From a virus: a DNA stretch of 64,000 nucleotides. Under the pieces are notes generated by a model. It was not told the DNA's origin. It searched no databases and saw only the letters and a program-made list of their open reading frames with translations. Position 1 is the stretch's first letter. The number at the start of each line of letters is the position of its first letter. The position numbers were made by a program, and so were the translations under genes. Below are positions 2,256 through 55,745 of this stretch, in pieces. The stretch spans positions 3,483 through 67,482 of the IMG/VR virus record IMGVR_UViG_3300003316_000080; one strand, 5' to 3'.

Positions 2256-3832
2256 TTCTGGTGTCGCGCCATGCCATCACACGCTACCTTGACCGAGAGC
2301 TAGAAACACACAAGTGGGTCAAGAAGCTGACAGAGCGTCAGCTGTGGCAGGAACTGAAGCAGCTGCGCACTGTCCCTCAGTTCAAGACTGACCCATGGCT
2401 GCACCAACTGGCGTGCTTCTATCTGGGCCTGCACTACCTGCGCTTCCTGTTCATCCTAGACATGGGGCTGGGCAAGTCGAAGTTGGTGATTGACCTGATC
2501 GAGCACCGTTTTCGGCAGAAGCGTCTCAGCATGCGCCGCGACGGACGCACAGCGCTGGTGATCGTTCCAGGCGTGCTGAATACGGTTGGATGGGGTGAGG
2601 ACATCGAGCGCCATTCACTCATGGAACCGCACCTGATCACGTGCGAGAACATTGAGCAGAAGCGCTATGAACTGCTGCACCCACAAGGTGAAGTGACCGT
2701 GATCGACATGCCGTCGCTTGCCCTAGCACTGTCCACCAAGAAGAAAGGCAAGGGTCGTGGCAAGTTGCTGGCAGACAAGCAGGCGATTGCACGCGCTCAG
2801 CAGTTGTACGGTTTCATTGGCGTTGATGAGACGCACAAGTACAAGAACCACGAAACCCTGTGGTACGACGTGCTCGATCCTCTGTGTGCAGCAGCCGACG
2901 AGGTGAAGGGGCTGACTGGAACCATCTTCAGTGCAAGTCCGATCGAGATGTGGCCGCAGTTTAATCTCGTCGACCGAGGTGAGACGTTCGAGAACCGTGG
3001 ACTCTTCCAGGCGGCCTTCTTCGACTCGAAGTCAGATCATGTGAAGGGGACTGTGTACACCTTCAGGCCTGAGAGGACACGTACTCTCAACAGGATGATG
3101 CAGCACCGCTCGATTCAGTATGACGAATCGGAGGTGCACGAACTTCCAGAGCGCGTCTATCGTCCGATCAGGATGGAACTGGCAGGCGAAGCGGACGAGC
3201 ATTACCGTCGCGCTCTGGAAGGTGTCATTAATGTTGGCGCCGCCGAGAGTAGCAAGCTAGATGGAGGCTGGGTGCGCATGCGCCAGATCTGCGGTGGCTA
3301 CCTGAAGTGGTCTGATGCACACGGAGCGCACAAGCTCATCTTTGCACAGAACCCGAAGTTGGACATGCTGATGCGCCTGCTGGAGGACATCGGAAGTAAG
3401 AAGGCTGTTGTGTGCCATGACTACACCGACAGCGCGGAACTGATCGAAGCGCGGTTTAAGAAGGAGGGCATCAAGTACGCCACGTGCTCAGGGCGGACGA
3501 AGGACAAACCGGCAGAACGCGCTCGCTTTCTCGATGATCCAACCTGCCGCGTCTTCTTGATGCAGAACGCGGCTGGGGGAACAGGCACTGACGGCCTGCA
3601 GAAGGTGTCCAACTACATGATCTTCTTTGAGTCGCCAGCCTCCCCGGGTCTGCGCAAGCAAGTAGAAAAGCGCATACATCGTCCAGGTCAGACACAGAGG
3701 GCGTTCTACTACGATTTGACATATGGGCGCACCGTCGATAGCGGCATCCGTGAAGCACACAAGCAGGGTTTTGACCTATACGAAGCCGTGATGTCTGGAC
3801 GCTCTTCGACCTTGAGAGGGCTCATGAGTTGA
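2252..3832 (+). CDS. SF2 helicase, SNF2/DEAH-like
   Basis: Motif I LDMGLGKS, motif II GVDETHKYKN, C-terminal helicase domain with GGTGTDG and HRPGQTQ. Confidence 0.7.
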   Translation: MILVSRHAITRYLDRELETHKWVKKLTERQLWQELKQLRTVPQFKTDPWLHQLACFYLGLHYLRFLFILDMGLGKSKLVIDLIEHRFRQKRLSMRRDGRTALVIVPGVLNTVGWGEDIERHSLMEPHLITCENIEQKRYELLHPQGEVTVIDMPSLALALSTKKKGKGRGKLLADKQAIARAQQLYGFIGVDETHKYKNHETLWYDVLDPLCAAADEVKGLTGTIFSASPIEMWPQFNLVDRGETFENRGLFQAAFFDSKSDHVKGTVYTFRPERTRTLNRMMQHRSIQYDESEVHELPERVYRPIRMELAGEADEHYRRALEGVINVGAAESSKLDGGWVRMRQICGGYLKWSDAHGAHKLIFAQNPKLDMLMRLLEDIGSKKAVVCHDYTDSAELIEARFKKEGIKYATCSGRTKDKPAERARFLDDPTCRVFLMQNAAGGTGTDGLQKVSNYMIFFESPASPGLRKQVEKRIHRPGQTQRAFYYDLTYGRTVDSGIREAHKQGFDLYEAVMSGRSSTLRGLMS

Positions 3833-6905: not shown

Positions 6906-6941
6906 TCGCCACACGGCAGCGCCCGCAAGGGCGTTGAACAG

Positions 6942-6977
6942 AGGGGCCCTGTATATTGCGGGGCCCCTTTTCTTTTG
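6942..6977 (+). terminator. rho-independent terminator
   Basis: GGGGCCC/GGGCCCC stem followed by TTTTCTTTT. Confidence 0.6.
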
Positions 6978-37353: not shown

Positions 37354-38853
37354 ATGAAGCTCTTGGTCAAATCCTCTTGGTGGAGGTCACTTGTGACACG
37401 AAAACGAGTTCGCACCATTGACCGCGCTGCCGGGGATTTCCACACTCCCCTGCAACTAGGCCCGAAGCGCCGTATGACGCCGGAAGGCTTCCTACTCTGT
37501 GAAGACGTCCCCATTGGACGCACAGGTGAACTGCTCTATGCAGCTGGTGAAGTTCCGGTGGAACCTGACCGGCGCGGTCTCATCACCATCACCCGGGATG
37601 CCGCCGCCCTCTTCCACCCCGACACGATCGCCAGTTTCAACGGCAAGCCGGTTACCGACAATCACCCGCCCGGTATGGAGGTAAGCCCGGACAACTACCT
37701 GATGTACGGCAAAGGCTTCACGGTGAATGCCCGCCGTGGTGAAGGTGAGTACAGCGACTGCATCGTGGCAGACCTACTCATCATGGATAAGCACACCATC
37801 GCGAAGATCATCGCGGGGAAGGTCGAAGTCTCGTCGGGATACAAGGCAGACTACGAAGACAACGGCGGCGGCTTCGGCCGTCAAATCGCCATCCTGGGCA
37901 ATCATGTAGCGCTGGTCGATAAAGGTCGCTGTGGCCCGCGCTGTGCTATCGGCGACCATGACACCACTGAAGGAGAAGAGGAAATGCCAACACCGAACGC
38001 CAAACCGGCGAACAAGGGTCAGCGTGCGCAACTGCTCGCACACGCGCTCAAGGCTGCTCTGACCGCCGACGAGGCGGGCGAGTTGGCCGATCAACTGGCC
38101 GGCGACAACGCGGGTGATCCCGTCGACGGCGCCACCCACATCCATTTCCACAGCAGCGGCGCCACGCTGAGCCCCACGGGCGCTGACGGCGGCGCTGCCT
38201 CGAAGACCGGCACCACGACCGGCGACGAGCGCATGGACAAGCTGGAGAAGATCGTCGGCGACATGGGCACCACGCTCAAGACTGTCGGCGATTCCGTCGC
38301 TGAACTCATGAAGAAGTTCGGCGGCCCCGGTGGCGACAGCGCCGCGACGACCGAAGAAGACGGCAAGAAGACGGGCGACGAAGGCTCCGGCGAGGATGAC
38401 AAGTCCAAGACGGGCGATTCCGCCGCTCTGGCGACCAGCTATGCCAAGCTGGCCCAGGACTGCGAGATTCTCGTGCCGGGCTTCAAGCCGCCGACGCTGG
38501 ACACCAAGGCCAAGCGCAGCGCTACCGTGGACAGCATGTGCGCGATCCGTCGCAACGCGCTGGGCCACTTCGCGATGGCTCCCGGTGCCGCCCAGGTGAT
38601 CCAGGCCGCGTCGGGTGATGCCCAGTTCAACGTGGCAACCGCCGACTGCGCCACCGTCGCTGAGGTGTTCAGCGCCTCGGTGATGGCGAAGCGGATGGCG
38701 AACAACCAAGCCGCCACCGGTGACGCTGCCAAGATCCCGGCGCTGCTCAAGCCTGTCGGTGTCTCGTCGTCTGGCGCTCCGGCGTCCCTGAGCCCTGCTG
38801 ACCTCAACAAGCAGTACTCGGACTTCTGGGCCAAGCAGAACCGCATGAACTGA
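37354..38853 (+). CDS. prohead protease / scaffold-like protein
   Basis: AGGAAG RBS; N-terminal EGFLLCEDVPIGRTGELLY resembles phage prohead protease (XkdF/DUF2213-like); Gly/Asp/Thr-rich C-terminus. Confidence 0.5.
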   Translation: MKLLVKSSWWRSLVTRKRVRTIDRAAGDFHTPLQLGPKRRMTPEGFLLCEDVPIGRTGELLYAAGEVPVEPDRRGLITITRDAAALFHPDTIASFNGKPVTDNHPPGMEVSPDNYLMYGKGFTVNARRGEGEYSDCIVADLLIMDKHTIAKIIAGKVEVSSGYKADYEDNGGGFGRQIAILGNHVALVDKGRCGPRCAIGDHDTTEGEEEMPTPNAKPANKGQRAQLLAHALKAALTADEAGELADQLAGDNAGDPVDGATHIHFHSSGATLSPTGADGGAASKTGTTTGDERMDKLEKIVGDMGTTLKTVGDSVAELMKKFGGPGGDSAATTEEDGKKTGDEGSGEDDKSKTGDSAALATSYAKLAQDCEILVPGFKPPTLDTKAKRSATVDSMCAIRRNALGHFAMAPGAAQVIQAASGDAQFNVATADCATVAEVFSASVMAKRMANNQAATGDAAKIPALLKPVGVSSSGAPASLSPADLNKQYSDFWAKQNRMN

Positions 38854-38854
38854 A

Positions 38855-38872
38855 GCAGTAAACAGTTACTGC
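38855..38872 (+). promoter_or_regulatory. perfect palindrome GCAGTAAACAGTTACTGC
   Basis: Sits 1 nt after the protease/scaffold stop and upstream of 38899. Confidence 0.45.
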
Positions 38873-38898
38873 AACACCTTCAACTCCAAGGAACCGAA

Positions 38899-39594
38899 AT
38901 GAAAAACGTGCTCAAGCGCTTCGACGCGATCCTGCTGGTGGGTCTGGCCGCCGTCGTTGCGACCATTTCCACCGTTGTGCAGACGGTGGCCGGCTTCGCT
39001 GCCTACGTCGTCCACACCCTGAAGGAAACCGGCCTGCGCATCGTGTGCGGCCCGCAAGTCTCCCTGACCCCGACTGGCGATGTCGCCATCACCTACCGCA
39101 TGGGTGGCGGCACCCCCGGTGACGTGAACCGCACTCATCCGTTCTCTGTGCTGCCCTGCCTGATGGACGCGGCCAACCCGGTGCTGTTCTACGGTGATGC
39201 TGTCTTCGTCGGCACTGCCTCGAACGTGCGTCGTGTGGCGACCACCGACGGTTCTGCGACGGCTGGTCCGCTGTACGGTGTGGCGGCCCGTCCGTACCCG
39301 ATCCAGCAGACCAGCGGCGGCATGTCGTCGTCGTTTGGCGTGGCCCCTGTGTCGTCCAATCAACCGCTCGACGTGGTGCGCCAAGGCTTCGTGATCGTGA
39401 AGCTGCCTGCTGGCGCTGTCGTCAAGAAGGGTGATCCGGTGCAAGTGTGGGCGGCTGCTTCGGCGGGTGCCAACGTGCAAGGTCAGTTCGTCGCTGCGGC
39501 GTCGGGCACCAACACTTTCACCGCGACCAACGCGAAGTACAACGGCCCGGCCGATGCCGACGGCAACGTCGAAATCGAAATCTGGGCCGCCTGA
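38899..39594 (+). CDS. hypothetical head protein
   Basis: AAGGAA RBS; between protease/scaffold and major capsid. Confidence 0.45.
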   Translation: MKNVLKRFDAILLVGLAAVVATISTVVQTVAGFAAYVVHTLKETGLRIVCGPQVSLTPTGDVAITYRMGGGTPGDVNRTHPFSVLPCLMDAANPVLFYGDAVFVGTASNVRRVATTDGSATAGPLYGVAARPYPIQQTSGGMSSSFGVAPVSSNQPLDVVRQGFVIVKLPAGAVVKKGDPVQVWAAASAGANVQGQFVAAASGTNTFTATNAKYNGPADADGNVEIEIWAA

Positions 39595-39635
39595 TCCGCC
39601 TCGGCGTCACCTCAGCAACTACCAAGGAATCCATC

Positions 39636-40856
39636 ATGAAATTCCCGAAGATCTTCACGCCGAAGCGCTCCATCGTGCGCGTGGTGCGTGGTCACATGAC
39701 TGGCGACAACGGCAGCGCCCTTGCGGCACTGCTGGCCGGCGCCGGTCACAACACCTTCGACGCCAACGCGGTCGGCGCGCTGCTGGCCGCTCCGACGGCC
39801 TCGATCGATCTGTACGGCAACCAGCGCGGCCACACCCTGCAACACCCGGTGCAGATCAAGACCGCTGACGGCCAGATGCGCACGGTCGACTCGACCGGCG
39901 CCTTCATGGTCGGTGAGCTGGAGCGCCTCGACCCGACCATGAACATGCCGCTGGTCGACGTGTCATGGTCGCGTGACATCGACCTGCGCGAAGACGTGTC
40001 GCTGGCCGACGAACTGTCGTCGTACACGCTGAGCCAGATCGCGGCGGCTGGTGGCCTCGCTGCCGGCGCCGGCATCCGCAACGGTAAGGCGTGGATCGGT
40101 AAGGTGTCCAACCAGATCGGCGGCGTGTCCGTCGACATCTCGAAGATCACCAACCCGCTGACGCTCTGGGGCATGGAAGTCAAGTACTCCATCCCGGAAC
40201 TGGAGAGCGCCGCGCGCGCCGGTCGTCCGATCGATGAACAGAAGCTGGAGGGCCTGCGCCTGAAGCAGCAGATGGACGTCGACGAGCAGGTCTACGTGGG
40301 TGACGCCCAGATCAACGTGGGCGGCCTGTGCAACCACTCGCTGGTCACCAACGTCGCCAACCTGCCCAACGGTGCGGGCGGCTCGCCGCGCTGGTCCCTG
40401 AAGACGGCCGATGAGATCCTGACGGACGTCAACGCGATCCTGACCTCCGCGTGGCGCGCGTCAGGCTACGCGCAGATCCCCAACCGCCTGCTGCTGCCGC
40501 CCACCGTGTTCGGCATGCTGACGACCCGGATCGTGTCGTCTGCCGGCTCCGTCTCGATCCTGCGGTACCTGCTGGAGAACAACATTCTTACCAAGCAGGG
40601 CAAGGGTGATCTGGAGATCTTCCCGGTCAAGTGGCTGGTCGGCTGCGGCGTCGGCGGCACCATCGGCACGGAAGGCGGTGTCGACCGCATGGTGGCGTAC
40701 CGCAAGGACAAGCGTCTGGTGCGCTTCCCCATGACCGGCCTGCAGCGCACCCCGGTGCAGTTCTCGTCGATCTACCACAGCACGACGTACTTCAACCGCC
40801 TCGGCGTCGTCGAGTTCGTCTACCCGGAGACGGCGGCCTACAGAGACGGTCTCTAA
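39636..40856 (+). CDS. major capsid protein
   Basis: AAGGAA RBS; ~406 aa; follows protease/scaffold as in XkdF/XkdG-type head modules. Confidence 0.6.
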   Translation: MKFPKIFTPKRSIVRVVRGHMTGDNGSALAALLAGAGHNTFDANAVGALLAAPTASIDLYGNQRGHTLQHPVQIKTADGQMRTVDSTGAFMVGELERLDPTMNMPLVDVSWSRDIDLREDVSLADELSSYTLSQIAAAGGLAAGAGIRNGKAWIGKVSNQIGGVSVDISKITNPLTLWGMEVKYSIPELESAARAGRPIDEQKLEGLRLKQQMDVDEQVYVGDAQINVGGLCNHSLVTNVANLPNGAGGSPRWSLKTADEILTDVNAILTSAWRASGYAQIPNRLLLPPTVFGMLTTRIVSSAGSVSILRYLLENNILTKQGKGDLEIFPVKWLVGCGVGGTIGTEGGVDRMVAYRKDKRLVRFPMTGLQRTPVQFSSIYHSTTYFNRLGVVEFVYPETAAYRDGL

Positions 40857-40877
40857 TGTGAATTCATAGTGTACCAT

Positions 40878-40903
40878 GGGGACCTTTTCACAAGGAGGTC
40901 CCC
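40878..40903 (+). promoter_or_regulatory. hairpin sequestering the RBS of the GIY-YIG gene
   Basis: GGGGACC...GGTCCCC stem; 3' arm contains the AAGGAGG RBS, ends at the ATG. Confidence 0.45.
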
Positions 40904-41569
40904 ATGGACACAAGAGTTCGCAAGGTTTACGCGTTGATGGACCCACGTGGGGCTGTAACCAGCGTCCGATATGTCGGGTGCACGCTTCAGAAGATTCTGA
41001 ACAGGTTGCAGTCCCACATTTACGAAGCAGAGACGAGTCCTGATGTCACACCAAAGCTTGTGTGGTTGCGAGCGCTGGCCGACGCGGGTTTAAAGCCTCT
41101 GATCGTGCACTTGGAAACAGTGGCACCTGAAGACGACTGGCAAGAGCGTGAGAAGTACTGGATCGCGAAATACAGCGGACCTGAATTGCTCAACACAACG
41201 ACAGGTGGTATCGGGGCACAGGGTTTAGCCCAAGATGTTCGTGATCGAATTTCGGAAGCGCTGCGCGGTCGTAGCCTGAGTGAAGAGCACAAAGCAAAGC
41301 TACGGAAGAACGCAGCAGAGAACCCATACAAGCACACAGAAGAAGCGAAGCGCGCTATCTCGGAGTCCAAGAAAGGTCTGAAGTTAGGACCCTTGTCCAA
41401 CGAAGCCAAGCAGAAACTGCGTGATGCCATGGGCTCTCTGGTGTGGATCACCAACGGGCGGGAAAACCGACGTGTGAAAGCAGATGCCATTCCGGCTGGG
41501 TGGCAGAAGGGGCGAGCCCCAAAGGACCAGCCAAAGCAATCACGCCGCGTACTTCGCGACGACCTTTAA
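40904..41569 (+). CDS. GIY-YIG homing endonuclease with NUMOD3-like repeats
   Basis: KVYALMDPRGAVTSVRYVGCT (GIY-YIG); C-terminal repeats HKAKLRK, EEAKRAISESKKG, NEAKQKLRDAMG. Confidence 0.8.
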   Translation: MDTRVRKVYALMDPRGAVTSVRYVGCTLQKILNRLQSHIYEAETSPDVTPKLVWLRALADAGLKPLIVHLETVAPEDDWQEREKYWIAKYSGPELLNTTTGGIGAQGLAQDVRDRISEALRGRSLSEEHKAKLRKNAAENPYKHTEEAKRAISESKKGLKLGPLSNEAKQKLRDAMGSLVWITNGRENRRVKADAIPAGWQKGRAPKDQPKQSRRVLRDDL

Positions 41570-41585
41570 CCCAAGGAGAGCCGAA

Positions 41586-41873
41586 ATGGCAAAAGCCCCG
41601 ACGAACACCAACAAGTCGACGAAGTCCACGGCGCGCAACACGCTGCTGACCACGGACAAGTCGCCGATTCCGCAGCCGGAAGGCCATGGCCCGACGGAGA
41701 CGGAGAAGCTGGCCGCTGAAGACAAGGTGCGTGTCTTCGTGCCCAAGGCGTTCAAGATCACGCTGGACGATGGCGACATGGTCGACATCGCGGCCGGTGA
41801 ACAGAAGATGCCCAAGTCGCTCGCCGAGCACTGGTACTCCAAGGTCAACGGCGTCGAGATCGCTGAAGACTGA
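41586..41873 (+). CDS. hypothetical head protein
   Basis: AAGGAGA RBS. Confidence 0.45.
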   Translation: MAKAPTNTNKSTKSTARNTLLTTDKSPIPQPEGHGPTETEKLAAEDKVRVFVPKAFKITLDDGDMVDIAAGEQKMPKSLAEHWYSKVNGVEIAED

Positions 41874-41902
41874 GGACACGTCGCACTGCTGCAGGAGATC
41901 GT

Positions 41903-42373
41903 ATGGACTGCTCTACCTCGGATGTGGTTGTCACGGTGACGGGCTTTCGGGAGACGTTTCCCGAGTTCGTCAACGACGTGGCGTACCCGGCGTACATGAT
42001 CGAGCCGCTGCTGACACTGAACAAGCAGCTGGTGAACCAAGCGCGCTTCGGGGATCTGACGGCCTACATGATCTACCTGCGCACTGCGCACATGCTGGTG
42101 ATCCAGAAGCAAAGCATGAACGCGGCGGCACGCGGGGGTGTGCCGGGGATGTCGGTCGGACCCATGAGCAGCAAAGGCGCTGAAGGCATGTCGGCTTCGT
42201 ATGAGGTCGGTGCCGTCATGGAAGACGGTGCGGGATGGTGGAATGGCACCGTCTACGGCCGTATGTGGTGGTCGTACAAGAACCTGTTTGGCGCAGGTCC
42301 CATGCAGGTCGGTGGCCCCGGTCCTGCTGTGCTGACGGCGTGGCCGGGCCCAGGTGGTTTCTTCCCTGTGTGA
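41903..42373 (+). CDS. hypothetical head-tail joining protein
   Basis: GCAGGAG RBS; position between capsid and tail genes. Confidence 0.45.
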   Translation: MDCSTSDVVVTVTGFRETFPEFVNDVAYPAYMIEPLLTLNKQLVNQARFGDLTAYMIYLRTAHMLVIQKQSMNAAARGGVPGMSVGPMSSKGAEGMSASYEVGAVMEDGAGWWNGTVYGRMWWSYKNLFGAGPMQVGGPGPAVLTAWPGPGGFFPV

Positions 42374-42379
42374 GGCCAC

Positions 42380-42979
42380 ATGGCAAACAGCAAACGCGAT
42401 GTGCCCAAGGAGTTACCCTCGTCCCTGAGTGTCACCAAAGACAACATGGCGGCGCTCTTCAGTGGACTCTCGCGTCTGGTGAGCCGTGAGGTGCTGGTGG
42501 GCTTTCCCGAGGGGGAAGACAACGAGCGCAAGCCTGAGCCTGGTGAGCCCGAAGGTCTGACCAACGCGGCACTGGGCTACATCCACGACAACGGATCTGA
42601 AGACGCACATATCCCTGCGCGTCCGTTCATGGTGCCCGGTCTGGAGTCTGTGAAGGAAGAGACTTCCAGCGCACTGGGCGGCGCTGCACGTGTAGCTCTG
42701 TCGGCGCGCGGGGGTGATGCTGTCGAGCAGCGTCTGCACCGTGCCGGCAGCATCGCAGCCAACGGTATCAAGGCCAAGGTCAATGAAGGTGTGCCCCCTC
42801 CACTTGCAGACGCCACCGTGCGTGCACGTGCTCGTCGCGGCCGCAAGGGCGCCAAGGAGGAATTGGAGCGCCGCAGTCAAGGTGAAGCCCCCGGCACTGA
42901 TCTCGCGAAGCCCTTGGTCGACACAGCCCAGATGCGCAACGCGATCACCTACGCAATCCGCAACAGGGAGGCCGAATAA
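42380..42979 (+). CDS. hypothetical neck protein
   Basis: Tightly packed, position. Confidence 0.45.
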   Translation: MANSKRDVPKELPSSLSVTKDNMAALFSGLSRLVSREVLVGFPEGEDNERKPEPGEPEGLTNAALGYIHDNGSEDAHIPARPFMVPGLESVKEETSSALGGAARVALSARGGDAVEQRLHRAGSIAANGIKAKVNEGVPPPLADATVRARARRGRKGAKEELERRSQGEAPGTDLAKPLVDTAQMRNAITYAIRNREAE

Positions 42980-52940: not shown

Positions 52941-53651
52941 ATGGCTACCACTGAGTATGTACCTTTCGCTAATGATCCGGCCGCGAATACACAGACGCCG
53001 GCTACATACACCGCAGACAGTCAGCGCACGATCGGCAACCAGCCCGGTATTGCTCGCAGTGAGTTCGTCAATACATCCTTGCGACAAGCATGCACAGGTG
53101 TGGCTGGCGTGGCTCAGTTTGCCGTCACAGAAGGCACGTTGGATCTGCCAGATGACGGTGATCCTGCCACTTTTGCGGCGGCGCTGAAGAATGCTATTCA
53201 GGCCCTCATCACCGGTGCGCAGTTCTGGAAGCCCGGTGATGTGAAAGCCACGATGGATTCAGGTGCGCAAACTGGTTGGCTCGAACTGAACGGCCAATTC
53301 ATCTTGCAAACGTCCTATCCAGCGCTGTATGCCATTGGTGTTGCGAATGGTTGGGCCACTACCGGCACTGGCCCGACAGCTGCTGTGCAGCTTCCTGATG
53401 GCCGCGCTGAATTCCTGCGTGGTGCTGATCTAGGTCGTAATGTGGATCCTGGGAGAACGTTGGGCAGTGCTCAAGGCTTTGCTATCCAGTCGCATACCCA
53501 CCAGATCATCGGTCTGCGTGATGCTGGGTCGGGTGGCCTTGACATCAACGGAGGCACTGGCCCTGTTGACGCTACTGGCAACACACAGGCCACTGGTGGC
53601 AGCGAAACGCGCCCCCGCAACATCACCGTCCGTTATCTGATCAAGACTTAA
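52941..53651 (+). CDS. tail fibre protein with collar domain
   Basis: AEFLRGADLGRNVDPGRTLGSAQGFAIQSHTHQ...ETRPRNI matches tail-collar motif; N-terminus similar to the next gene. Confidence 0.6.
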   Translation: MATTEYVPFANDPAANTQTPATYTADSQRTIGNQPGIARSEFVNTSLRQACTGVAGVAQFAVTEGTLDLPDDGDPATFAAALKNAIQALITGAQFWKPGDVKATMDSGAQTGWLELNGQFILQTSYPALYAIGVANGWATTGTGPTAAVQLPDGRAEFLRGADLGRNVDPGRTLGSAQGFAIQSHTHQIIGLRDAGSGGLDINGGTGPVDATGNTQATGGSETRPRNITVRYLIKT

Positions 53652-53660
53652 GGAGCCGTT

Positions 53661-55745
53661 ATGGCGACCAATGAATTTCTGCCCTTTGCCACAGACGCTG
53701 GCGCCGAGGTTGATACTCAGGCTGTGTGGGCTTCTCCTAGTGGTTACCGCCCGGTAGGTTATGGACCTGGGATTCTGACGAAAGAAAAGCTGAACAAGGC
53801 TCTTCGTCAGAGCACCTCTATCGCCTCTGCCGTCGCTCAATTGATGGCAGAGAACCTGCCCAGTGAAGACATCCTGGATAACGGTGACATCAACACGTTG
53901 GTGGACCAACTCTCGCGGGCTGTGATCACCGGTACATTCCTGAGTGGCACTGCCAGCACGCAGGGCTCGAACGCCGTTGGCACGCGTCAGAACTTGGCAG
54001 GGGCTGTCGATCGCACACAACATGAAAAGAACGCCGACTTCATCAGCGTGAAGGATTTCGGTGCTGTTGGTGACGGTGTGCACGATGACACGACGGCTTG
54101 CGTGGCCGCAGCCACGGCCGCTCTTGCAGTTGGAGCGGGTCTGTATTTTCCAGACGGCCGCTATTACATCAACGGACTTTTCAGTGTCCCGAACAAAGTA
54201 TCTTTGTATGGGTCTGGTAAGACTACCAGCGAGATCCAGTTCGGTTCCTCTGGAAGCCTTCGTGTGGTCGGCACATCACCCAGCTACGTGGGGCGTTTGT
54301 CTATCAGTCGACTAGGCTTGACCAATCAGGGCGCGGGTTCCCCCTTCGGCATTCAGTTCACGTATGCGACTCGCATCACGATGTACGACTGTGTCGTCTA
54401 TAACACCAGCATTCAACTGTCTGCGTTCTCGTACATCACCTTTGAAAACTGTGACCTGTTTGGTGGCAGCATTCAAGGCGACCACCCCACAGTCAACGAG
54501 ATCAGTGAAGCACTGAAGATCATCGGCTGCAACGGCAGCAACTTTGCGATTAACGTGAAGGACACTGCCGACGTTCTCGTGTCACGTACACATCTGCTTG
54601 GGCCCACCTCACAGATCATGATCCAGCGTGGCGAGCAAAACAGCGCGTTTTACCCACCTGTACAGATTGCCAATTGCATTGTGGATTCTGGTGATGATGA
54701 AGGCATTTATCTGATTGGCGTTGCGCCAAGAATTTCGGATACCTTCGTCAGCAGTGGTCGCACCAACCTGAAGTCAGGTGTGCGCTTGAATGATTGCATT
54801 GAAGGCAGCTTGATCGGTGTTACGGCGCGCTTTTGCGGCAATCATGGTCTGCATGTTGGCTTCAGCAAGCAGATCAAGGTTTTGGGGGGCCATTTTGACG
54901 ACAACAAGGTGTCGGGTGTGCGTATCGGTGATTCGTCAGATCTGACTTTCATCGGCAATACGATGATGAACCAGCCATCGTGGTTCGGTGGTAGCTACCC
55001 ACAGGTAAACGGCATCACGGATGAGCCCTCGAACTGCACGAACATCACATGCATCGGAAATCAGACGGTGGGCAACACGAGTGCTCAGGTGTACCTGCCG
55101 TCTGCTACCAACATCATCCACAGCAACGTCGGATACAACGAAGGTCGCCTGACCTGTGATAGCTGGCGCAACAACACGGACAATGCGGCGTCTCTTGGGA
55201 CTGCCGGCGCTAGATACACCGTGGTGCATGCGGTCAGTGGCACCATCAACACGTCAGATGCCAATGAAAAGCAGGATATCGAAGATATTCCTGTGGAGTG
55301 GTTAGAGGCATGGTCCTCCGTAAGGCGTGTGCGCTTCAAATGGAAGGACGCTGTGCAGAAGAAAGGCACCGGTGCCCGTTGGCACATCGGTCTGATTGCA
55401 CAAGAGATCTGGGAGGCTTTCGCCGCTCGCGGTATCGACGCGTTCGAGATTGGTCTTCTGTGTTATGACGCGTTCGAAGAAGTACCAGAGCGCACGGTGG
55501 AAGTGCCTGAAATCCCGGCACTCGTCATCGAGCACCCAGAAGTTCCTGAAGTGCTGGATGAAGACGGCCGTGTCATACAAGAATACAAGCCAGGATGGCA
55601 CGAAGTGGTCGAAGAAGCGCAGCCAAGCCGTGTAGTAGTCGTCCAGGAGTACAAGCCTGCTGGTGGTCGCTATGGTGTGCGTTACGAAGAGGCTGAGGCA
55701 CTAGAGGCCGCTTGGGTTCGCTGGAAATTGGAATCTCTTCAGTAA
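53661..55745 (+). CDS. tailspike: pectate-lyase-like beta-helix with C-terminal S74-type intramolecular chaperone
   Basis: KDFGAVGDGVHDDTTA (pectate-lyase-superfamily start), repetitive beta-helix region, C-terminal SDANEKQDIEDI...WHIGLIAQEI. Confidence 0.65.
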   Translation: MATNEFLPFATDAGAEVDTQAVWASPSGYRPVGYGPGILTKEKLNKALRQSTSIASAVAQLMAENLPSEDILDNGDINTLVDQLSRAVITGTFLSGTASTQGSNAVGTRQNLAGAVDRTQHEKNADFISVKDFGAVGDGVHDDTTACVAAATAALAVGAGLYFPDGRYYINGLFSVPNKVSLYGSGKTTSEIQFGSSGSLRVVGTSPSYVGRLSISRLGLTNQGAGSPFGIQFTYATRITMYDCVVYNTSIQLSAFSYITFENCDLFGGSIQGDHPTVNEISEALKIIGCNGSNFAINVKDTADVLVSRTHLLGPTSQIMIQRGEQNSAFYPPVQIANCIVDSGDDEGIYLIGVAPRISDTFVSSGRTNLKSGVRLNDCIEGSLIGVTARFCGNHGLHVGFSKQIKVLGGHFDDNKVSGVRIGDSSDLTFIGNTMMNQPSWFGGSYPQVNGITDEPSNCTNITCIGNQTVGNTSAQVYLPSATNIIHSNVGYNEGRLTCDSWRNNTDNAASLGTAGARYTVVHAVSGTINTSDANEKQDIEDIPVEWLEAWSSVRRVRFKWKDAVQKKGTGARWHIGLIAQEIWEAFAARGIDAFEIGLLCYDAFEEVPERTVEVPEIPALVIEHPEVPEVLDEDGRVIQEYKPGWHEVVEEAQPSRVVVVQEYKPAGGRYGVRYEEAEALEAAWVRWKLESLQ

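Follow-up and report, generated by a model that had tools for sequence, protein, structure and literature searches.

A homing endonuclease gene behind the major capsid gene of an E217/PB1-like phage and a conserved hairpin predicted to occlude its ribosome-binding site

The DNA analysed here, referred to as the window, is a stretch of 64,000 nucleotides of the IMG/VR virus record IMGVR_UViG_3300003316_000080 (positions 3,483 to 67,482 of that record; coordinates below are those of the window). It represents nearly the whole genome of a phage of about 67 kb, the structural module of which is E217/PB1-like and the GC content of which is about 65%. The major capsid protein gene of this phage is followed by a free-standing homing endonuclease gene (HEG) of the GIY-YIG type, and the ribosome-binding site (RBS) and the start codon of the HEG are both part of a long hairpin. 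The initial annotation had correctly placed the endonuclease behind the capsid gene. It had given the open reading frame (ORF) as 40878-41569, of which the end is right and the start is not: the ORF begins at 40904, and the stem core has its first G at 40878. The features of the locus are the following.

39636..40856, plus strand: major capsid protein gene, 406 residues (PF09950 at 7e-76; PHROG 264, major head protein)
40857..40873, plus strand: AT-rich 17-mer spacer TGTGAATTCATAGTGTA, present only in the HEG-bearing allele and absent from L169, the closest HEG-less relative
40867-40872 and 40872-40877, plus strand: -10-like hexamers TAGTGT and TACCAT, the latter running into the stem; candidate promoter element
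40874..40888, plus strand: 5' arm of the hairpin, CCAUGGGGACCUUUU, from folding
40889..40892, plus strand: tetraloop CACA, from folding; A40892 is also the first base of AAGGAGG
40892-40898, plus strand: Shine-Dalgarno sequence AAGGAGG
40893..40907, plus strand: 3' arm of the hairpin, AGGAGGUCCCCAUGG, from folding; holds the Shine-Dalgarno sequence, the spacer and the start codon
40904-40906, plus strand: start codon of the HEG
40904..41569, plus strand: free-standing GIY-YIG HEG, 221 residues (Pfam, PHROG and family profile)
41586..41873, plus strand: head-module gene of 95 residues, downstream of the HEG (tblastn on relatives)

The computed stem is 15 bp long, and six of the seven Shine-Dalgarno bases (AGGAGG), the spacer, the AUG and the next G all lie within its 3' arm. 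A GGGGACC/GGTCCCC stem with the RBS buried in its 3' arm had been described in the initial annotation. This core is right, the helix extends beyond it, and the AUG is paired as well as the AGGAGG. The proposal had been left to a folding of the region, and the free energy turned out to be far from zero: the stem-loop by itself folds at -25.5 kcal/mol (z-score -6.0, with none of 200 shuffled sequences as good). Two outer helices, 40857-40865/40914-40922 and 40869-40872/40908-40911, extend the hairpin, and the 69-nt stretch that includes them folds at -42 kcal/mol (z-score -8.2, again 0 of 200 shuffles). The hairpin is retained in both the minimum free energy (MFE) and the centroid structure of a 301-nt context. 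Among the 75 predicted gene starts of the window, the HEG leader has the lowest MFE, its pairing probability over positions -13..+3 (0.84) is tied for the highest (mean 0.52, standard deviation 0.16), and its Shine-Dalgarno/anti-Shine-Dalgarno duplex is the strongest (-12.1 kcal/mol). Presumably, the capsid gene is a highly transcribed late gene, and the RNA reading through from it enters the HEG. Because the RBS lies in a very stable hairpin, translation of the HEG from the capsid read-through transcripts should be strongly repressed, as expected from established physical chemistry and from the precedents in T4 that are described below.

Two ways in which ribosomes might open the stem were considered and rejected. 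An ATG at position 40876, within the 5' arm, starts a 55-residue ORF out of frame with the HEG; this AUG has no Shine-Dalgarno sequence and is present only as the pairing partner of the real start codon. Translational coupling to the capsid stop codon is excluded by distance, the HEG start codon being 47 nt past that stop, so that a terminating ribosome could melt the outer helix at most; in the related locus L011, the inner stem starts about 40 nt 3' of the capsid stop codon. A search of Rfam returned no family at its gathering score, only sub-threshold chance matches on the minus strand (HIV_FS2, 22 versus 44 bits; mir-361, 19.7 versus 70). The sole other leader of the window that is as stable as that of the HEG is found at about 6940-6975 (plus strand). 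It is a terminator-like hairpin, GGGGCCCCUG...CGGGGCCCC followed by UUUUCUUU, with a leader MFE of -41.7 kcal/mol at a predicted gene boundary, and is probably an intrinsic terminator that overlaps a mis-called start.

Protein searches yielded a small clade of HEG homologues at 78%, 42%, 37% and 37% identity, and a metagenome scan added one further locus. The order of capsid gene, HEG and homologue of the 95-residue gene is the same at L010, L011, L012, L013/L014 and L100, all of them from metagenomic phages. At the six post-capsid loci, including the window, the 3' arm of a hairpin starts in every case at the G that opens GGAG and ends with the AU of the start codon. The stems, and the energies of the isolated hairpins, are as follows.

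Window: GGGGACC/GGUCCCC, -25.5 kcal/mol
L010: GAGGGCUCC/GGAGCCCUC, -23.3 kcal/mol
L011: GGUUCGCUCC/GGAGCGAACC, -22.2 kcal/mol
L012: GGAGGUUUU/GGAGCCUCC, -13.2 kcal/mol
L100: GGUGCUUU/GGAGCACC, -13.4 kcal/mol
L013: a weaker, bulged version, -5.6 kcal/mol

The stems of the five other loci are only 10-14 bp long and their outer helices are variable. Pairs were counted on constructs consisting of the arms alone, with the loops replaced by GAAA, as a MAFFT alignment of the full hairpins gapped the 5' arm and was unusable. Computed in this way, the hairpin is conserved with covariation. Standard pairs occupy 91.7% of the alignment cells versus 65.6% in shuffles (0 of 500), and both sides have changed in 8 of the 12 stem pairs among the six loci. 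The covariation score is 0.80 versus 0.31 in the shuffles, none of the 500 reaching it, and does not exceed 0.31 when the partners are slid; covariation is also found in the spacer pairs. The stems contain several G-U pairs, formed by a U-run against the GGAG (six across the loci), and the structure should therefore belong to the sense RNA rather than to the DNA or the antisense strand. That selection acts on the structure of the hairpin is supported by these comparisons, because five homologous post-capsid loci keep a hairpin reaching from the Shine-Dalgarno sequence to the AUG with compensatory changes.

The gap between the capsid gene and the next gene carries an HEG in the window, L010, L011, L012, L013/14 and L100, and none in L001-L006, L008, L009 and L169. 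As judged from these alleles, the HEG bears a signature of mobility, a presence/absence polymorphism at one locus. In the HEG-less relatives, the homologue of the 95-residue gene comes straight after the capsid gene and a terminator. A stem followed by a T-run occupies the gap in L001/L002/L009, L004, L005 and L169, and the RBS of the next gene is exposed. The comparison of relatives with and without the endonuclease, which had been proposed at the outset, thus separates the two classes of alleles: the hairpin is kept at all six HEG loci, and the HEG-less ones carry a terminator and an exposed RBS. Scans of viral and genome contigs with the 95-residue downstream protein gave no relatives; L169 came from the protein database.

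L169 is the closest HEG-less relative, and the 3' end of its capsid gene is about 90% identical to that of the window. Its gap of 79 nt, ...CCCCCGGC GCCCAU GCCGGGGG CUUUUU CCCAAGGAGAGCCGACAUG, contains a terminator that folds at -23.2 kcal/mol and is without any TA dinucleotide. Homology between the window and L169 ends at the capsid stop codon and restarts directly after the HEG stop codon, at CCCAAGGAGAGCCGA. The window lacks the 5' arm of the terminator and has the AT-rich 17-mer instead. A segment containing the RBS is present once in L169 and twice in the window, at 40881-40898 (GACCTTTTCACAAGGAGG) and at 41561-41579 (GACCTTTAACCCAAGGAGA). The two copies form an imperfect direct repeat that brackets the HEG ORF; the second (plus strand) serves the downstream gene and is overlapped by the last HEG codons (…RDDL*). 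No terminator was found on the plus strand in 38800-42500, and nothing of the kind is left between the capsid gene and the next gene. The hairpin was itself considered as an intrinsic terminator and rejected: it has no T-run, and its stem is followed by ACACAAGAG. As far as computation on these alleles can show, the cassette (about 40857-41569) has displaced an intrinsic terminator, which is the usual element behind the capsid gene in phages of this group. The window leader CCAUG-GGGGACCUUUUCACAAGGAGGUCC resembles CCAUGCCGGGGGCUUUUUCCCAAGGAGAGCC of L169, which comprises the loop end, the 3' arm, the T-run and the Shine-Dalgarno sequence. We infer that the hairpin of the window reuses the 3' half and the T-run of the old terminator as its 5' arm, at least in this lineage. 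The motif UUUUCACAAGGAG is also found in the cassettes of L011 and L012, so that a part of the resemblance between leader and terminator may be a trait of the family.

A hexamer of the form TAnnnT is found at all six loci, its last base falling on positions +1..+4 as counted from the base of the 5' arm (TACCAT in the window; TAGTAT, TATGGT, TATAAT, TATACT and TACAAT in the others). The probability of its chance occurrence is 0.07-0.48 per locus, with a product of 8e-6. A TGn extension precedes the hexamer in L011 and L013, and in L010 it is found on an alternative TAGTGT box about 5 nt upstream. Transcripts begun 6-10 nt downstream of the box are predicted to lose the hairpin, and the pairing over -13..+3 would fall from 0.59-0.92 to 0.40-0.62, which is about the genome average. 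The initial annotation had proposed that the HEG may be expressed solely from transcripts that begin within the hairpin; an internal promoter at this place is suggested by the weak motif only.

These observations can be brought together in a scheme that we consider likely, in which the hairpin of a mobile cassette silences the HEG on capsid read-through RNA and only RNA devoid of the 5' arm gives rise to the nuclease. A GIY-YIG/NUMOD3 cassette has taken the place of the post-capsid terminator. Its mRNA leader would fold into the 15-bp hairpin, with the Shine-Dalgarno sequence, the spacer and the AUG as its 3' arm. On read-through RNA, the HEG would thus be translationally silent despite having the best Shine-Dalgarno sequence of the genome. 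RNA without the 5' arm would most likely be a short transcript, initiated about 7 nt past the -10-like box adjoining the stem base, in the manner of T4 I-TevI; its generation by nucleolytic cleavage within the stem would be less likely. Several points weigh against this scheme. A scan with the sigma-70 consensus found no promoter at the locus, no -35 element accompanies the TAnnnT boxes, and the box of the window, be it TACCAT or TAGTGT, has neither a -35 nor a TGn and is poor by sigma-70 standards. If TAGTGT is the box, the predicted start at about 40879 leaves a 10-bp stem over the Shine-Dalgarno sequence. The final T of the hexamer, and the preceding A as well if the hexamer ends at +1, is part of the basal AU of the stem, which is dictated by the start codon as its pairing partner. 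The hairpin of L013 is weak (z-score -1.0 at its -5.6 kcal/mol). The comparison comprises six sequences only, from about four independent lineages, and the arms were aligned according to the fold of each individual sequence, so that the percentage of paired cells is inflated.

The hairpin might instead serve mainly as a 3'-end or stability element of the capsid message, a stand-in for the terminator that does without a T-run. In that case, the RBS would be occluded only incidentally, with practically no expression of the HEG from this RNA. The hairpin sits where HEG-less relatives have a similarly strong terminator hairpin (that of L169 at -23.2 kcal/mol), there is apparent homology between a part of its 5' arm and the former terminator's 3' arm and T-run, and no other plus-strand terminator lies between the capsid gene and the next gene. 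However, a pure stability element need not hold one register, whereas the 3' arm runs exactly from the Shine-Dalgarno sequence to the AUG at six of six loci and the spacer covaries. Moreover, no T-run follows the stem at any locus, and purifying selection on the HEG, described below, implies that it must be expressed at some point. We regard this explanation as unlikely, although stabilization of the mRNA is plausible as an additional function that is compatible with RBS occlusion.

The main scheme could also hold in its repression and differ in its release, with RNase III or another endonuclease cutting the long helix on read-through RNA, freeing the RBS and activating translation late. Cuts made by RNase III in leader hairpins activate phage genes in lambda and T7. 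The extended helix of the window (15 + 4 + 9 bp, up to 28 bp) approaches the length of an RNase III substrate, and the evidence for a promoter is weak, but the 10-14-bp stems and variable outer helices of the other five loci are short for this enzyme, and cleavage leaves the TAnnnT box at six of six loci unexplained; we find such processing improbable. Least probable of all, and by our estimate very much so, is a function of the inverted repeat as DNA, be it a protein operator, a recombination site or the target of the HEG itself. The repeat is a near-perfect DNA palindrome that folds on the minus strand too (-22.2 kcal/mol), the leader of the window resembles the HEG-less allele, and I-TevI is known to bind, ahead of its own ORF, an operator similar to its homing site (PMC2988022). 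Sites bound by proteins conserve their sequence, however, and here the sequence varies and complementarity alone is kept. The six G-U pairs are A-C mismatches on the other strand, and the fold of the minus strand is 3 bp shorter.

The encoded protein is an I-TevI-like GIY-YIG/NUMOD3 homing endonuclease, an identification for which the profile, the conserved residues, the fold and the presence/absence polymorphism of its free-standing gene agree. Its parts are as follows.

Residues ~5-97: GIY-YIG catalytic domain (profile against I-TevI)
Residues ~124-178: NUMOD3-type helices
Residues 179-192: C-terminal beta-hairpin

The protein scores 18.6 bits against the Pfam GIY-YIG family PF01541, under the cut-off of 22.6, and 9e-13 against PHROG 314 ('homing endonuclease'). 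A profile of 41 database homologues matches the catalytic domain of I-TevI (1LN0/1MK0) at E = 2e-10 over residues 5-97; a profile built from the five closest HEGs only reached no GIY-YIG entry of the PDB. In the alignment of the 41 homologues, Y9, Y23, G25, E83 and N97 are invariant, and R34 and H38 are at least 90% conserved. The AlphaFold2 model has a predicted local distance difference test score (pLDDT) of 86. Its N-terminal domain, with a pLDDT above 90, has the order beta-beta-alpha-alpha-beta-alpha and is followed by four helices (110-177) and a beta-hairpin, and the top Foldseek match of the model in the PDB is a GIY-YIG nuclease, 9u75 (probability 1.0, E = 0.013). The N-terminus had been called a canonical GIY-YIG domain. 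The GIY-YIG assignment stands on the family profile, the residues and the model, but the motif is a variant, KVYAL...VRYVG, with a Pfam score below the cut-off. Three NUMOD3 repeats had been proposed as well. NUMOD3 (PF07460) is over its cut-off at 27.6 bits; of the single repeats, one passes at 23.7 bits, one is weak at 13.3 bits, and the third is undetected by the profile and recognizable by eye only. The DNA-binding domain of I-TevI (1I3J) gave a weak profile match (E = 0.21). The ratio of nonsynonymous to synonymous substitution rates (dN/dS) relative to the sister allele L010 is 0.12-0.15, which indicates that the protein is under purifying selection. Exact-sequence look-ups gave no record for the window HEG or for the identical protein P0001.

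The comparison with L010 also reveals that the two halves of the HEG differ in their history.

41240..41265 (L010:415-440): recombination breakpoint, relative to L010, between the catalytic and the DNA-binding halves of the HEG

Nucleotide identity between the window and L010 is 52-72% upstream of this breakpoint, in the spacer, the hairpin and the GIY-YIG domain, and 87-100% from about 41265 onward, in a stretch that covers the DNA-binding half and 1.2 kb or more of phage genes. Taken on either side of about 41250, identity is 63% upstream and 91-98% downstream. The synonymous divergence (dS) is 2.75 upstream and 0.29 downstream. This pattern indicates that recombination in the HEG linker exchanged the catalytic domain and the leader as one unit; HEGs at exchange boundaries have been described (PMC10055350). 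A broader proposal, which we put forward tentatively and hold to be possible rather than probable, is that the -10 box, the RBS hairpin and the GIY-YIG domain form a portable 5' module, which passes from one HEG lineage to another through linker recombination, that the DNA-binding half stays with the locus, and that the 5' arm of the window was built from the destroyed terminator. If this were true, the element would convert a terminator of its host phage into its own translational lock, and a circuit of the T4 I-TevI type would have had an independent, convergent origin in an unrelated phage group by a path that can be traced.

The initial annotation had likened the leader to the sequestered RBS of T4 I-TevI. 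The comparison is apt, as control by an RBS-occluding hairpin is documented for I-TevI, I-TevII, I-TevIII, segB and Aeh1 mobE (PMC2988022). In T4 I-TevI, a late promoter lies within the hairpin that sequesters the RBS (Gott et al. 1988, as reviewed by Edgell, Gibb and Belfort 2010, PMC2988022). I-TevI shares with the window a GIY-YIG HEG, a consensus Shine-Dalgarno sequence located about 8-10 nt before the AUG, its burial in a highly stable hairpin of the read-through RNA and a -10-type box so placed that its transcript would lose the 5' arm, the last being a prediction in the window. I-TevI is encoded in an intron, whereas the HEG of the window is free-standing and belongs to an unrelated phage lineage with an E217/PB1-like module and a GC content of about 65%. 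Read-through comes from early or middle genes in T4 and from the late capsid gene in the window, and the box of the window is not the T4 late motif TATAAATA and is a candidate only. Aeh1 mobE and T4 segB (Gibb and Edgell 2007 and 2009, cited in PMC2988022) are, like the gene of the window, free-standing HEGs in an operon of the host phage, and their RBS hairpins restrict expression despite co-transcription with essential genes. MobE differs in that it is an HNH enzyme, encoded in an operon for nucleotide metabolism in a T4-like phage, and the evidence at the window, unlike that for mobE and segB, is comparative, from six loci with covariation. T4 segD is another GIY-YIG HEG beside the major capsid gene, between genes 23 and 24, with terminators helping to limit its expression (PMC2988022). 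SegD is antisense to its neighbours; the HEG of the window is co-oriented and would be controlled by RBS occlusion. In T4 soc, e, 39, 25 and 26, structure likewise masks the RBS on long polycistronic RNA while shorter transcripts are translated (PMC2988022), but these are ordinary phage genes and not mobile nucleases.

The design of the control is thus already known from T4. What is new is that the design is met with in this lineage of phages, that the gene lies directly behind the capsid gene within a late structural operon, that the cassette has displaced a terminator, and that covariation backs the hairpin. Expression of an HEG must suffice for its spread without harming the phage or neighbouring essential genes, and the taming of free-standing HEGs has been studied almost only in T4-like phages. 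The present locus adds a covariation-backed case from an unrelated, GC-rich, mostly metagenomic lineage of E217/PB1-like myoviruses, and it extends the picture of HEG regulation rather than altering it. The window and L169 provide a matched pair of HEG-bearing and HEG-less alleles for homing, loss of the terminator and RBS occlusion.

The corresponding post-capsid gap of L007, a more distant relative, contains a different GIY-YIG HEG of 305 residues (GVYLITNT...KVYVGIS) at L007:4933-5850 on the minus strand. Its antisense layout recalls T4 segD. With a sense cassette in the window and an antisense one in L007, the post-capsid gap is therefore a recurrent landing site of HEGs.

Viral and metagenome scans yielded 102 GIY-YIG loci, among which the post-capsid clade ranks top for RBS occlusion, and just a few loci unrelated to it come close. 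The idea that RBS hairpins are a general property of GIY-YIG HEGs was discarded, strong occlusion being present at only about 10 of these 102 loci, and a distant clade of 165-residue proteins, in a context of replication genes, has no such hairpin. Perfect hairpins of 9-13 bp lie just before or across the start codon, as automatically assigned, at a few unrelated, AT-rich metagenomic GIY-YIG loci:

L152:1280-1335
L153:2268-2320
L135:2450-2503
L042:2418-2470
L142:1830-1882

RBS occlusion may have arisen repeatedly among free-standing GIY-YIG genes.

The surroundings of the locus are those of a head module. The capsid gene is preceded by genes for a cement or decoration protein, a DUF2213 scaffold-like protein and the portal, and the HEG is followed by the 95-residue gene, the product of which is 100% identical to the L010 protein and 82% to that of L169, and then by an E217_gp27/DUF4054 gene. 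A megablast search of phage GenBank found no close cultured relative, only a capsid gene of 74% identity in Edwardsiella phage ZHS. The HEG differs from its flanks in composition, with a GC content of 0.53-0.55 versus 0.62-0.70, and its GC content at third codon positions (GC3) is 0.59, that of the capsid gene being 0.90. GC3 is low, too, in the tail-collar and tailspike genes at 52941-55745 (plus strand; 0.54-0.61), which encode Collar, pectate-lyase/beta-helix and Peptidase_S74 chaperone domains. The low value in this region fits horizontally exchanged host-range modules, unrelated to the HEG.

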